Virus record (IMG/VR): IMGVR_UViG_2778261530_000011
DNA from: a virus
Lineage: Duplodnaviria > Heunggongvirae > Uroviricota > Caudoviricetes
Length of the DNA stretch: 38,435 bases
Reading direction: 5' to 3' (one strand)
Position numbers and translations under genes: made by a program. This document shows positions 4,786-30,023 of the stretch, in pieces. The notes below the pieces were generated by a model. The model ran no database searches. It was not told the DNA's origin and saw nothing but the letters and a program-made list of their open reading frames with translations. Position 1 is the first letter of the stretch. Every line of letters starts with the position of its first letter.

Positions 4786-5405
4786 TACTTCACCTCCTGC
4801 GGCGGCTCCGGTAGCGGTATCCAGTGGGTTACTTTCGATGCCGGTTCTTCTCCATCGTCAGTAACTGCCCACCATTTGTTTCTCGACCAATCGTAATACC
4901 CTTCGAAGGCATCGCACTTAGTCCAGCCGTAAGACTTACCCCAACACCAAACATACTGTTTATCGTTCGGCATTCGCTCACTACAGCTTATCCAACCATC
5001 CGGAGTTACCGGAGAGTTGCCCGATAGCTTGTTCAACTTGTAAGTCTGGCTTACAGGTTTGGCACCATGAAGCATGGTGGCGCGGCAGGCGTTCCAGCCT
5101 TCATCAAAGCCGACTATGCCATTATTTAAAGACGGACGAGCATCTGGCACCACCGGCACTGGCTTGGCTATATATAGCGGCTGAACATACCAGCCCTTTG
5201 ATAACCAACTGTCAGCAACGTTTTTACTTCTGGTTATTGCTGGAATACCCAAGCCATTGTCTGAATGCAGCCATGCCACCGGTTCTGCTTCCAGCGAGGC
5301 TAATGCTATTTCATAAGCCCGGCGCTCAATATTGTCTCGCACATCCAAGCTGCCTATGCGCTCTTTGATTTCTTTAATCATTTCTTTGTCGGTAAAAGTG
5401 GTCAT
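4785..5405 (-). CDS. DUF551-domain prophage protein
   Basis: 206-aa ORF with Trp-rich C-terminus ending WIPLPEPP, characteristic of DUF551; start and stop overlap neighbouring genes. Confidence 0.75.
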   Translation of the reverse strand: MTTFTDKEMIKEIKERIGSLDVRDNIERRAYEIALASLEAEPVAWLHSDNGLGIPAITRSKNVADSWLSKGWYVQPLYIAKPVPVVPDARPSLNNGIVGFDEGWNACRATMLHGAKPVSQTYKLNKLSGNSPVTPDGWISCSERMPNDKQYVWCWGKSYGWTKCDAFEGYYDWSRNKWWAVTDDGEEPASKVTHWIPLPEPPQEVK

Positions 5406-25279: not shown

Positions 25280-25469
25280 ACTGCAGGCGCTGCGTCAGGC
25301 GCGCCTTGATTTATTAACCGGTAAACGGGTGGTGTCTGTCCAGAAAGATGGTCGCAGAATTGAATATACGGCGGCTTCTCTGGATGAGCTTAACCGGGCG
25401 ATCAATGATGCGGAGTCGGTACTGGGGACAACCCGGCGTCGCCGTCGTCCGCTGGGAGTGAGGTTATGA
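25263..25469 (+). CDS. W: Head-tail joining protein
   Basis: 68 aa, lambda gpW homologue (LLTGKRVVSVQKDGRR). Confidence 0.9.
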   Translation: MVTVAELQALRQARLDLLTGKRVVSVQKDGRRIEYTAASLDELNRAINDAESVLGTTRRRRRPLGVRL

Positions 25470-27058
25470 AACGAACGCCTGTCCTGATTGATGTGAACGG
25501 CGTTCCGCTTCGTGAGAGTCTCAGCTACAACGGGGGCGGTGCAGGATTTGGCGGGCAAATGGCTGAGTGGTTGCCACCGGCGCAGAGTGCCGATGCGGCC
25601 CTGCTGCCCGCGTTGCGTCTGGGGAATGCCCGGGCAGATGATCTGGTGCGCAATAACGGAATAGCGGCTAATGCGGTGGCTCTGCATAAGGATCACATTG
25701 TCGGGCATATGTTTCTGATCAGCTACCGTCCGAACTGGCGCTGGCTGGGGATGCGGGAGACCGCAGCAAAAAGCTTTGTCGATGAGGTGGAGGCGGCCTG
25801 GTCGGAATACGCCGAAGGGATGTTTGGCGAGATCGACGTGGAAGGAAAACGCACGTTCACGGAATTTATCCGTGAAGGTGTGGGCGTTCATGCGTTTAAC
25901 GGCGAAATCTTTGTGCAGCCGGTCTGGGATACGGAAACCACGCAGTTATTCCGTACGCGTTTTAAAGCCGTGAGTCCGAAACGGGTGGACACGCCTGGAC
26001 ACGGTATGGGGAACCGTTTTCTGCGGGCCGGTGTGGAGGTCGATCGATATGGCCGTGCCGTCGCGTACCATATCTGTGAGGATGATTTTCCGTTCTCTGG
26101 TAGTGGACGATGGGAACGGATCCCGCGTGAACTTCCCACCGGGCGTCCGGCCATGCTGCATATTTTCGAGCCGGTGGAGGACGGGCAGACCCGTGGGGCT
26201 AATCAGTTTTACAGCGTCATGGAACGGCTGAAGATGCTCGATTCCCTGCAGGCAACACAGCTTCAGTCGGCCATAGTGAAGGCGATGTATGCAGCGACGA
26301 TTGAAAGTGAACTTGATACCGAAAAGGCCTTTGAATATATCGCCGGCGCGCCACAGGAGCAGAAGGATAATCCGCTTATTAATATTCTGGAGAAGTTCTC
26401 CAGCTGGTATGACACGAATAACGTGACACTGGGCGGTGTCAAAATTCCGCACCTTTTCCCTGGTGATGATCTGAAACTACAGACTGCGCAGGATTCAGAC
26501 AATGGATTTTCTGCGCTTGAACAGGCGCTGCTGCGGTATATCGCCGCCGGTCTTGGCGTTTCCTACGAACAGTTGTCCCGTGATTACTCGAAGGTCAGTT
26601 ACTCAAGTGCCCGCGCCTCCGCCAATGAGTCGTGGCGCTATTTTATGGGGCGGCGAAAATTTATTGCGGCCCGGCTGGCCACGCAGATGTTTTCCTGCTG
26701 GCTGGAAGAGGCACTTCTTCGGGGGATTATTCGTCCGCCACGGGCACGTTTTGATTTTTATCAGGCGCGATCAGCCTGGTCACGGGCAGAGTGGATTGGT
26801 GCCGGAAGAATGGCCATTGACGGGCTCAAGGAAGTCCAGGAATCAGTGATGCGCATTGAGGCCGGACTGAGCACGTATGAGAAAGAGCTGGCGCTGATGG
26901 GCGAGGATTATCAGGACATTTTCCGCCAGCAGGTCAGGGAATCTGCTGAGCGGCAAAAAGCCGGACTCTCACGTCCGGTGTGGATAGCGCAGGCGTATCA
27001 GCAGCAGATAGCGGAGAGTCGCAGGCCGGAAGAGGAGACAACACCACGTGAGACGTAA
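25466..27058 (+). CDS. B: Portal protein
   Basis: 530 aa lambda gpB homologue. Confidence 0.95.
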   Translation: MKRTPVLIDVNGVPLRESLSYNGGGAGFGGQMAEWLPPAQSADAALLPALRLGNARADDLVRNNGIAANAVALHKDHIVGHMFLISYRPNWRWLGMRETAAKSFVDEVEAAWSEYAEGMFGEIDVEGKRTFTEFIREGVGVHAFNGEIFVQPVWDTETTQLFRTRFKAVSPKRVDTPGHGMGNRFLRAGVEVDRYGRAVAYHICEDDFPFSGSGRWERIPRELPTGRPAMLHIFEPVEDGQTRGANQFYSVMERLKMLDSLQATQLQSAIVKAMYAATIESELDTEKAFEYIAGAPQEQKDNPLINILEKFSSWYDTNNVTLGGVKIPHLFPGDDLKLQTAQDSDNGFSALEQALLRYIAAGLGVSYEQLSRDYSKVSYSSARASANESWRYFMGRRKFIAARLATQMFSCWLEEALLRGIIRPPRARFDFYQARSAWSRAEWIGAGRMAIDGLKEVQESVMRIEAGLSTYEKELALMGEDYQDIFRQQVRESAERQKAGLSRPVWIAQAYQQQIAESRRPEEETTPRET

Positions 27059-28553
27059 TCTTTCACACATTATTGCCGCAGCATTCAATGAACCGCTGCT
27101 TCTGGAGCCCGCCTATGCGCGGGTTTTCTTTTGCGCGCTCGGGCGCGAGATGGGGGCAGCAAGTCTTTCGGTACCACAACAGCAGGTACAGTTTGATGCT
27201 CCCGGAATGCTGGCTGAAACGGACGAGTACATGGCCGGAGGTAAACGACCTGCCCGTGTTTACAGGGTGGTGAACGGTATTGCTGTACTGCCGGTGACCG
27301 GCACGCTGGTGCACCGGCTGGGTGGTATGCGGCCATTTTCCGGAATGACAGGCTATGACGGTATTGTCGCCTGTCTTCAGCAGGCAATGGCGGATAGCCA
27401 GGTGCGGGGCGTACTGCTGGACATTGACAGTCCGGGCGGGCAGGCCGCCGGCGCGTTTGACTGCGCTGACATGATTTACCGCCTCCGTCAGCAGAAGCCG
27501 GTCTGGGCACTGTGCAATGACACGGCCTGTTCTGCAGCCATGCTGCTGGCGTCGGCCTGCTCCCGACGGCTGGTTACCCAGACATCCCGTATCGGTTCCA
27601 TTGGCGTGATGATGAGCCATGTCAGCTATGCCGGTCATCTGGCGCAGGCCGGTGTGGATATCACGCTGATTTACTCAGGGGCGCACAAGGTGGATGGCAA
27701 TCAGTTTGAAGCGTTGCCGGCAGAGGTTCGCCAGGACATGCAGCAGCGGATTGATGCGGCGCGCCGGATGTTTGCCGAAAAAGTGGCGATGTTTACCGGT
27801 CTGTCTGTTGATGCAGTCACGGGAACAGAGGCCGCCGTTTTTGAAGGTCAGTCCGGCATTGAGGCCGGGCTGGCGGATGAATTAATCAATGCGTCGGATG
27901 CCATCAGTGTGATGGCCACGGCGCTGAACAGTAATGTCAGAGGAGGCACTATGCCGCAATTAACTGCAACGGAAGCCGCCGCGCAGGAGAACCAGCGAGT
28001 GATGGGGATCCTGACATGCCAGGAAGCGAAAGGACGTGAACAGCTTGCCACGATGCTGGCAGGACAACAGGGCATGAGCGTTGAACAGGCCCGGGCGATT
28101 CTGGCCGCGGCGGCACCGCAGCAGCCGGTGGCATCCACGCAGAGTGAAGCCGATCGCATTATGGCGTGTGAAGAAGCGAACGGTCGTGAACAACTGGCGG
28201 CAACACTGGCGGCGATGCCGGAGATGACGGTGGAAAAAGCCCGCCCGATCCTGGCTGCTTCACCGCAGGCGGATGCCGGACCATCACTCCGTGATCAGAT
28301 CATGGCACTGGATGAGGCAAAAGGGGCTGAGGTGCAGGCTGAACAGCTGGCTGCCTGCCCGGGAATGACTGTGGAGAGCGCCCGGGCTGTGCTGGCTGCG
28401 GGATCAGGTAAGGCAGAACCGGTCTCTGCATCCACAACCGCCATGTTTGAACATTTCATGGCGAACCATTCACCGGCAGCGGTACAGGGTGGCGTGCCAC
28501 AGACGTCAGCAGATGGTGATGCGGACGTGAAAATGCTCATGGCCATGCCATGA
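27048..28553 (+). CDS. C: Head maturation protease / scaffold (S49 peptidase domain; Nu3-like scaffold region in the C-terminal part)
   Basis: 501 aa lambda gpC homologue with GTG start overlapping B; C-terminal third contains three tandem ~47-aa repeats. Confidence 0.9.
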   Translation: MRRNLSHIIAAAFNEPLLLEPAYARVFFCALGREMGAASLSVPQQQVQFDAPGMLAETDEYMAGGKRPARVYRVVNGIAVLPVTGTLVHRLGGMRPFSGMTGYDGIVACLQQAMADSQVRGVLLDIDSPGGQAAGAFDCADMIYRLRQQKPVWALCNDTACSAAMLLASACSRRLVTQTSRIGSIGVMMSHVSYAGHLAQAGVDITLIYSGAHKVDGNQFEALPAEVRQDMQQRIDAARRMFAEKVAMFTGLSVDAVTGTEAAVFEGQSGIEAGLADELINASDAISVMATALNSNVRGGTMPQLTATEAAAQENQRVMGILTCQEAKGREQLATMLAGQQGMSVEQARAILAAAAPQQPVASTQSEADRIMACEEANGREQLAATLAAMPEMTVEKARPILAASPQADAGPSLRDQIMALDEAKGAEVQAEQLAACPGMTVESARAVLAAGSGKAEPVSASTTAMFEHFMANHSPAAVQGGVPQTSADGDADVKMLMAMP

Positions 28554-28589
28554 AGCCAGTGCTGACCATCAATAGGAGGTTTTTACAAT

Positions 28590-28937
28590 ATGGTGACGAA
28601 AACCATCACTGAACAGCGTGCGGAAGTACGTATTTTTGCCGGTAATGATCCGGCTCATACCGCCACAGGCAGCAGCGGGATTTCCTCGCCAACACCGGCA
28701 CTGACGCCCCTGATGCTGGATGAAGCCACCGGGAAACTGGTGGTCTGGGACGGACAGAAAGCCGGTAGTGCGGTTGGCATACTGGTACTGCCGCTTGACG
28801 GCACAGAGACGGCGCTGACGTATTACAAGTCGGGAACCTTTGCGACGGAGGCAATCCACTGGCCTGAAAGTGTGGATGAACACAAAAAGGCCAACGCCTT
28901 TGCTGGCAGTGCCCTGAGTCACGCGGCGCTGCCGTAA
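28590..28937 (+). CDS. D: Head decoration protein
   Basis: 115 aa lambda gpD homologue; AGGAGG SD. Confidence 0.9.
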   Translation: MVTKTITEQRAEVRIFAGNDPAHTATGSSGISSPTPALTPLMLDEATGKLVVWDGQKAGSAVGILVLPLDGTETALTYYKSGTFATEAIHWPESVDEHKKANAFAGSALSHAALP

Positions 28938-28994
28938 CACGTTATCAGGCCACCGCGGTGGCCTGACTGATTTCTGAATGAAAGGAACTGATTT

Positions 28995-30023
28995 ATGGGA
29001 TTGTTTACGACCCGCCAGTTACTCGGTTATACCGAACAAAAAGTTAAATTTCGTGCGCTGTTTCTGGAGCTGTTTTTCCGCCGTACGGTGAATTTCCATA
29101 CCGAAGAGGTGATGCTGGACAAAATTACCGGAAAAACGCCGGTGGCGGCCTATGTCTCCCCGGTTGTTGAAGGAAAAGTGCTGCGTCATCGTGGTGGTGA
29201 AACCCGCGTGTTGCGTCCGGGCTACGTCAAGCCGAAACATGAATTTAATTACCAGCAGGCGGTTGAGCGCCTTCCTGGTGAAGATCCATCTCAACTGAAT
29301 GATCCGGCTTACCGCCGTCTGCGTATCATTACCGATAACCTCAAACAGGAAGAGCACGCGATTGTCCAGGTGGAAGAAATGCAGGCGGTAAATGCTGTGT
29401 TGTATGGCAAATACACCATGGAAGGAGACCAGTTCGAGAAAATTGAGGTCGATTTTGGCAGGTCGACGAAGAATAACATCACTCAGGGTAGTGGTAAGGA
29501 GTGGTCAAAACAGGATCGTGACACGTTCGATCCTACACATGATATTGACCTCTACTGCGACCAGGCCAGCGGTCTTGTGAATATTGCCATTATGGACGGT
29601 ACCGTCTGGCGTCTTCTGAATGGTTTTAAGCTGTTCCGCGAAAAACTGGATACCCGTCGCGGTTCAAATTCTCAACTCGAAACGGCAGTGAAAGATCTGG
29701 GCGCAGTGGTGTCCTTCAAGGGGTATTACGGCGATCTGGCCATTGTGGTGGCGAAAACGTCTTATATAGCAGAAGACGGTATCGAAAAACGTTATCTTCC
29801 AGATGGCATGCTGGTTCTGGGGAATACTGCTGCAGATGGGATCCGTTGTTACGGTGCCATTCAGGATGCTCAGGCGTTGTCCGAAGGTGTGGTGGCCTCT
29901 TCCCGTTATCCGAAACACTGGCTGACGGTAGGGGATCCCGCCCGTGAATTTACCATGACGCAGTCCGCGCCGCTGATGGTGTTGCCGGACCCGGATGAGT
30001 TTGTGGTGGTACAGGTGAAATAA
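28995..30023 (+). CDS. E: Major capsid protein
   Basis: 342 aa lambda gpE homologue. Confidence 0.95.
   Translation: MGLFTTRQLLGYTEQKVKFRALFLELFFRRTVNFHTEEVMLDKITGKTPVAAYVSPVVEGKVLRHRGGETRVLRPGYVKPKHEFNYQQAVERLPGEDPSQLNDPAYRRLRIITDNLKQEEHAIVQVEEMQAVNAVLYGKYTMEGDQFEKIEVDFGRSTKNNITQGSGKEWSKQDRDTFDPTHDIDLYCDQASGLVNIAIMDGTVWRLLNGFKLFREKLDTRRGSNSQLETAVKDLGAVVSFKGYYGDLAIVVAKTSYIAEDGIEKRYLPDGMLVLGNTAADGIRCYGAIQDAQALSEGVVASSRYPKHWLTVGDPAREFTMTQSAPLMVLPDPDEFVVVQVK

Follow-up and report, generated by a model that had tools for sequence, protein, structure and literature searches.

In bacteriophage lambda, the prohead protease gene C and the scaffold gene nu3 form a nested pair read in one frame, and the head gene operon of phage 21 is annotated in the same manner. 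The GenBank record of the latter (M81255, 'Bacteriophage 21 head gene operon') carries a gene 5, a nested in-frame gene 6 and the ribosome-binding site (RBS) of gene 6, the products being named head-tail preconnector gp5 and scaffold gp6, and it marks three repeat_region features within gene 6 as 'Tri1 box', 'Tri box' and 'Tri3 box', with the note 'function unknown; putative'. Here we examine the corresponding gene in a tailed phage sequence of 38,435 nucleotides (nt) (Caudoviricetes, IMG/VR record IMGVR_UViG_2778261530_000011), the whole of which is referred to below as the window, with emphasis on three related units in the C-terminal, scaffold part of the encoded protein. The paper accompanying the phage 21 record is said to be that of Smith and Feiss (1993, Gene 126:1-7).

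Other viruses also couple a protease to a scaffold. In phage P2 (gpO) and in herpesviruses (UL26/UL26.5), the protease and the scaffold share their C-terminal part, so that the protease enters the procapsid, while the scaffold of phage P22 binds the coat through a C-terminal helix-turn-helix domain. The likeness of these systems to the gene described here is one of logic and an analogy only, no sequence or fold similarity having been detected, and we know of no case among them in which the contact module is present in tandem copies.

A triplicated module in the scaffold part of gene 5

The open reading frame (ORF) at 27048-28553 of the window is a homologue of lambda C, that is, an S49 prohead protease gene with a nested Nu3-type scaffold gene. 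It is very probably a phage-21-type version of the lambda C/Nu3 pair, in which a module of ancient origin is present in triplicate and maintained by selection. The three units are each about 40 amino acids (aa) long, with start-to-start periods of 50 and 47 aa (Table 1), and when aligned they share 16 invariant positions of about 45, with the consensus ..D.IMAC.EAKGREQLA..LAA.PGMTVE.ARAILAA. Local BLOSUM62 scores between units range from 84 to 101, against 26 ± 5 in shuffles (Z 11.5-15.2), and the observed score was reached by none of 2,000 composition-preserving shuffles. A profile hidden Markov model (HMM) of the unit yields exactly three full-length matches in the 501-aa protein, at 87.8, 86.0 and 87.1 bits, and a single match in lambda gpC (aa 360-401, 55 bits). 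The initial annotation, made from the DNA letters and their translations, had described three tandem related units at this place and one in lambda; its quoted peptides are present in the translation, and both counts agree with the profile matches. The interval that it gave, 28008-28440, is right except for its end, which overshoots the last unit by some 20-30 nt.

The repeat is clear when the protein is aligned to itself, and it is detectable at the protein level only, because Tandem Repeats Finder (TRF) returned no rows for 27000-28700 and a seed-based DNA repeat search gave just fragments of 12-25 nt. The DNA of the unit cores is 58-64% identical, and the longest inter-unit similarity is a 20-nt stretch shared by units 1 and 2. 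Synonymous divergence between units (pS) is 0.64-0.76 and hence saturated, nonsynonymous divergence (pN) is 0.21-0.33, and at 11-13 of the 19-21 positions where two units have the same residue the codons differ. Because pS is saturated, pN is low and all three units are retained in the Salmonella phage Gifsy-1, the triplication is taken to be shown as ancient and kept by selection at the protein level.

The triplication itself is already known, as the depositors of the phage 21 sequence annotated the same segments. The Tri boxes of M81255 coincide with the three profile matches, and the internal RBS and start are identical to those of phage 21. Over all 1,506 nt, the window gene and phage 21 gene 5 are 99.1% identical, the products differing at four residues (Y249F, V373A, A429V and A484P, from phage 21 to the window), and gene 5 of phage 21, 4A7, ev017, 1W, 3W, PhiR57_1 and others is 99.1-99.5% identical to it in nucleotides. 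The present analysis adds a catalogue of alleles with two, about 2.5 and four units together with their junctions, and the recognition of the unit as the conserved core of a family that has neither a Pfam model nor a solved structure. In the open-access literature, we found no paper on the Tri boxes or on the function of the Nu3 module, and no relevant one on the 'head-tail preconnector'.

Comparison with lambda, phi80 and Gifsy-1

Lambda gpC is 53% identical to the window protein overall (E 1e-141), in an alignment that extends over the protease domain and stops after the first unit. The two systems share the S49 domain, the gene order B-C/Nu3-D-E, the nested in-frame arrangement with a GGAGG-ATG signal at the homologous Met309 of lambda, and the conserved unit. 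They also share a serine, Ser162 of the window protein being aligned with Ser166 of lambda gpC, which a 2010 study by Medina et al. reportedly gives as the catalytic residue.

The main difference lies in the number of units, with one in the 439-aa lambda gpC and three in the 501-aa window protein. The latter had been estimated as about 60 residues longer, and the actual difference of 62 is a net value: the two extra units with their linkers (aa 362-458) account for about 97 aa, offset in part by a shortfall of 36 aa in the linker ahead of unit 1, which measures 19 aa from the scaffold start Met in the window and 55 aa in lambda. The scaffold product is 200 aa long in the window and 131 aa in lambda when counted from Met309, and the C-terminal tails of the two proteins are not alignable by BLASTP. 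The phi80 protein (447 aa) resembles that of lambda in having one unit, preceded by a long low-complexity linker. Gifsy-1 (STM2605.Gifsy1, 498 aa), by comparison, has three units in the same order, the same internal Shine-Dalgarno-ATG signal and a short linker like that of the window, although it is only 54% identical over the scaffold part and has a longer tail ('LLMSIPGTSAT').

The tail that follows the last unit shows a resemblance of its own. The helix at its beginning ('TAMFEHFMA' in the window, 'ALDRLMQGA' in lambda) resembles the first helix of the unit ('EADRIMACE', 'LRDQIMALD'), and BLASTP aligns lambda 'DRLM' to the start of unit 2 of the window. The segment (window 28422-28470, aa 459-475; lambda gpC aa 408-416) looks as if a truncated extra unit followed the array in every family member.

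The nested scaffold gene and its internal start

Gene 6 starts at ATG 27951, which is Met302 of the 501-aa protein, and its Shine-Dalgarno sequence GAGGAGG (27940-27946), when read in frame, encodes the Gly-Gly of 'RGGTM'. All three units lie downstream of this signal, in the Nu3-like part as the initial annotation had placed them, and since they are inside the nested gene, the protease and the scaffold protein both carry all three. Two protein families match the scaffold part in three stretches each, namely PHROG 8940 ('capsid assembly protein') and PHROG 8399 ('head scaffolding protein'). To judge from these sequence signals, the single frame gives rise to a full-length protease, gp5 (501 aa), and a scaffold, gp6 (200 aa), with a common C-terminal region.

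The same signal, GGAGG followed after 4 or 5 nt by ATG and read in frame as Gly-Gly-x-Met, recurs at the homologous position of Gifsy-1 (caggaggcactATG), phi80 (ttggaggaactATG) and lambda (caggagggcgaATG), where it leads to Met309 at genome position 5342. The lambda RefSeq record NC_001416 annotates nu3 from 5132 (L003 2333), as a protein of 201 aa. In front of the ATG at 5132 the Shine-Dalgarno context is poor (GGGAGA, at a distance of about 13 nt), and the window has an Ile codon at the homologous place. The ATG at 5342 (gpC Met309; L003 2543) follows AGGAGG at a distance of 5 nt and corresponds by homology to the annotated start of phage 21 gene 6. Because this ATG has the better Shine-Dalgarno sequence and has homologues in phage 21, phi80 and Gifsy-1, the RefSeq coordinates of nu3 look too long.

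Distribution of the unit

To define how the unit is distributed, its profile was searched exhaustively against 1.84 billion cluster representatives at E <= 1e-3, and 471 representatives matched. Among the best 150 of these, 143 sequences were new, of which 136 have one unit, four have two and three have three; a single copy is typical, in about 95% of the best-scoring family clusters. These copy counts derive from the full-length query and the exhaustive profile search, the 200-aa scaffold query having given mostly fragments. The end of the unit lies a median of 51 aa from the C-terminus in S49 proteins of 380-850 aa, and the unit is also present in ORFs of about 134 aa that resemble separately called Nu3 genes. 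When 51 single-unit members were aligned, strong conservation downstream of the protease domain was confined to one block, the unit, which is followed by a weakly conserved 'Ld.aM....nP' and then by a variable tail.

The triplication is specific to the phage 21/Gifsy-1 branch and yet very abundant in absolute numbers. Of 5,426 complete Escherichia coli genomes, 1,870 carry the 603-nt scaffold region, the search of these genomes having given 2,922 places. The phage collection contains 19 full-length records of the E. coli (phage-21) type, each of them with the 600-nt form and its three units. The scaffold region of the window is 100% identical to that of E. coli strain GB089. A distant stand-alone scaffold-like protein of 198 aa (P0265), with unrelated flanks, carries two copies of the unit, and the module may therefore have been duplicated independently in another lineage.

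Predicted structure

The 200-aa scaffold was modelled with AlphaFold2 from an alignment of 29 sequences, with a mean predicted local distance difference test score (pLDDT) of 72 and a predicted template modelling score (pTM) of 0.30. The model consists of three small helical modules (scaffold residues 6-53, 66-103 and 113-151; pLDDT about 78-87) joined by low-confidence linkers, with pLDDT values of 84-87 in unit 1, 80-83 in unit 2 and 78-81 in unit 3. In the tail, two helices are predicted with low confidence (pLDDT 45-64), at aa 461-473 (the TAMFEHFMANH region) and aa 492-497 (DVKMLM). A separate AlphaFold model of a single unit, based on a three-sequence alignment, adopts a helix-loop-helix. 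Foldseek listed HU, ClpP and designed-helix structures, which were set aside as noise (E > 1).

Copy-number alleles and recombination

Close relatives of the gene in E. coli assemblies, 82-96% identical, were compared for the number of units, and alleles with two, about 2.5 and four units were recovered beside the three-unit form (Table 1). The 451-aa allele results from an exact 150-nt deletion whose crossover falls within the 20-nt, 90%-identical stretch shared by units 1 and 2, the remainder of the gene being 99.5-99.9% identical to the window. The 551-aa allele results from a tandem duplication of 150 bp, the copies of which are 98.7% identical, and the 482-aa allele is extremely common, with 3,592 blocks of the collection according to the index. 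All variant alleles lie in intact head-tail operons, in which the flanking genes (Nu1, A, W, B, D, E, FI, FII, Z, U and V) are unchanged; a change in copy number is tolerated in nature, at the level of the intact operon at least. The junctions suggest that unequal recombination between units continues to reshape the array. Recombination had been proposed as a source of the extra units, and the proposal suits the natural two-, ~2.5- and four-unit variants, whose junctions lie in inter-unit homology, but not a recent expansion, as the triplication is ancient. As far as could be found, copy-number polymorphism of the unit has not been described before.

Larger rearrangements of the gene were also encountered. 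In a 657-aa protein (P0093) of a single E. coli genome, 156 aa are duplicated internally, from the end of the protease domain up to and including unit 3, which brings the array to about 5.5 units; this singleton is either real or an assembly artefact. Two different chimeras of 721 aa (P0172) and 577 aa (P0178) follow gp5 exactly as far as '...ARAVLAAGSG', where unit 3 ends, and run on into unrelated sequence, which in one of them is Gly/His-rich ('GSAGDHTHGNGIRW...') and tail-fibre-like. Their breakpoints are at the same residue, each chimera occurs on several contigs, and both look like deletion fusions in rearranged prophages.

Proposed role of the module and alternative explanations

We propose that the conserved unit is the functional core of the Nu3-type scaffold part, in which it would make the key contact, because it is the sole conserved block. 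By analogy with the shared-tail systems of P2 and herpesviruses, the shared region may allow the protease to be built into the procapsid by the contacts that the scaffold itself uses. With three such modules on flexible linkers, the 21-type scaffold would be multivalent for the partner of the module, which may be the major capsid protein (at its inner face), the portal or other scaffold chains. According to a yeast two-hybrid map of lambda, Nu3 interacts with E, with itself and with C, and older work found Nu3 to be required for incorporation of the portal (PMC3224144). Coat binding, self-association and portal binding are therefore all candidate roles. Multivalency probably compensates for an N-terminal linker 36 aa shorter than that of lambda, with capsid size unchanged. 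No effect on capsid size is expected, because phage 21 and lambda-21 hybrids have lambda-sized heads.

Several observations weigh against this proposal. Lambda works with one unit, and alleles with two, about 2.5 and four units occur naturally; the precise number would thus seem not to be critical, and any claim that a three-fold valency matters is weakened accordingly. The prophages with the variant alleles may not be functional. Searches of Pfam, NCBIfam and PDB sequences with the scaffold part and with the unit gave no match, nor did Foldseek comparisons of the 200-aa and single-unit models with the PDB at E <= 0.001. In addition, the helix breaks within a unit differ between the models, which have moderate confidence, with three to four short helices per unit in the 200-aa model and a helix-loop-helix in the single-unit model, and because of this disagreement the topology within the unit is uncertain.

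The alternative that survives best, although we consider it rather unlikely, is that the additional units are redundant length, one unit being the essential contact and the other two a structured spacer in place of the Thr/Ser/Ala/Gln-rich linker. Such an exchange would agree with the linker before unit 1, which is 19 aa long here, 55 aa in lambda and also long and of low complexity in phi80, with the range of two to four copies in intact operons, and with the very wide spread of the ~2.5-unit allele, in which half of unit 2 is gone. Set against these points, all three units are under purifying selection (low pN, saturated pS) with their 16 invariant positions kept, and Gifsy-1 retains all three despite its divergence in the scaffold part. 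Net scaffold length is not conserved either (200 versus 131 aa), so that a simple compensation of length is incomplete.

A reading of the 'boxes' as elements of the DNA itself, for instance binding sites for a protein or sites of recombination, with their place in a coding sequence a mere coincidence, is very improbable. Synonymous positions are saturated between the units while the amino acids are conserved, and TRF detects no DNA repeat, whatever the GenBank name and its 'function unknown' might imply. A later phage 21 record (OL657228) marks two minus-strand matches to the CII consensus inside gene 6, but the pattern TTGYN6TTGY occurs six times in the window against 9.6 expected by chance, and the unit region has no promoter-like excess. 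A chance resemblance within an Ala-rich, low-complexity region, or an assembly artefact, is hardly credible, since the abundance of Ala, Gln and Glu and the near silence of DNA repeat finders are countered by the failure of all 2,000 composition-preserving shuffles to reach the unit scores and by the presence of three units in phages sequenced independently since 1992 and in the 1,870 complete genomes.

The Nu3 module might be a valency element of variable copy number (one to four copies in E. coli prophages), and the number might tune procapsid assembly in its kinetics or fidelity, or fit the scaffold to a particular variant of the coat or portal; we regard this as a speculative and doubtful extension. 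Little is at stake in the triplication as such, which was recorded for phage 21 in the early 1990s and is present in about one third of complete E. coli genomes. The locus has modest value as a natural experiment, in which one head operon occurs with one, two, about 2.5, three or four copies of a conserved block, and this block belongs to the lambda-type scaffold and is without a structure, a Pfam family or a known binding partner. The copy-number series could show what the partner of the block is and whether scaffold valency matters in the assembly of procapsids with a triangulation number of 7 (T=7).

Protease domain, neighbouring genes and genomic context

The N-terminal two thirds of the 501-aa protein are an S49 (SppA-like) serine peptidase according to Pfam and PDB sequence matches. 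The SppA-like region comprises aa 77-291, with the PDB chains 3rst and 4kwb matching aa 77-290 at E ~4e-16, and PHROG 53 ('head maturation protease') matches the protein over its full length (E 1.6e-228). In the ORF list, the start of gene 5 overlaps the 3′ end of the portal gene by 11 nt. The gene is located between a portal gene of the lambda family and homologues of D and E, which is the position of a lambda-type C/Nu3 gene.

Table 1. Features of the head gene region and alleles of gene 5. Positions refer to the window unless another sequence is named; L numbers are our handles for individual loci.
Feature	Position	Strand	Remarks
Portal gene, lambda family	25466-27058		PF05136
Gene 5, phage-21 type (lambda C homologue): S49 prohead protease and scaffold part	27048-28553	+	501 aa, GTG start
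Peptidase S49 domain	27483-27926	+	aa 146-293 by Pfam; PF01343, E 1.5e-34, above gathering score
Shine-Dalgarno sequence GAGGAGG for gene 6	27940-27946	+	4 nt before ATG 27951; RBS of gene 6 in M81255 and OL657228
Nested in-frame gene 6 (Nu3 homologue, scaffold protein)	27951-28553	+	200 aa; annotated coding sequence in phage 21 records
Unit 1, profile envelope	27996-28127	+	aa 317-360
Unit 1, core	28008-28121	+	aa 321-358
Unit 2, profile envelope	28146-28277	+	aa 367-410
Unit 2, core	28158-28268	+	aa 371-407
Unit 3, profile envelope	28290-28421	+	aa 415-458
Unit 3, core	28299-28409	+	aa 418-454
'Tri1 box'	28018-28121		M81255 (L001) 2471-2574
'Tri box'	28158-28268		M81255 (L001) 2611-2721
'Tri3 box'	28299-28412		M81255 (L001) 2752-2865
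Longest inter-unit DNA similarity, units 1/2	28023-28042 and 28173-28192	+	20 nt, 90% identical; self-BLAST
C-terminal tail	28422-28550	+	aa 459-501
Head decoration protein, D homologue	28590-28937		PF02924 HDPD
Major capsid protein, E homologue	28995-30023		PF03864 Phage_cap_E
FI homologue			downstream neighbour; PF14000
Allele of 451 aa	L007 4001-5356		2 units; unit 1/unit 2 hybrid
Allele of 452 aa			2 units; loss of unit 2; includes O157:H7 genome
Allele of 472 aa			unit 2 partial; part of unit 2 lost
Allele of 482 aa	L009 4001-5449		~2.5 units; 19-aa (57-nt) deletion inside unit 2
Allele of 501 aa			3 units; form in the window
Allele of 551 aa	L006 4001-5656		4 units; added unit 3/unit 2 hybrid; E. 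coli GCA_900537015.1, contig LS992828.1

Minus-strand ORFs over the gene 5 region (27848-28159, 27960-28193, 28295-28546 and others) were dismissed as antisense shadows of a coding frame that is rich in G+C and strongly conserved; they have no annotated homologue in any phage record examined. The window differs from phage 21 in its early region, which is like that of Stx2c-converting phages; positions 1-22443 are 96.4% identical to such phages, the alignment covering only 49% of the query in five pieces. With a left half of this kind and head genes of the phage-21 type, the window is a mosaic lambdoid prophage. Between the D- and E-homologue genes, a terminator-like hairpin at 28945-28966 (plus strand), with a 9-bp stem of which six pairs are G-C, was noted as a match to the consensus only.

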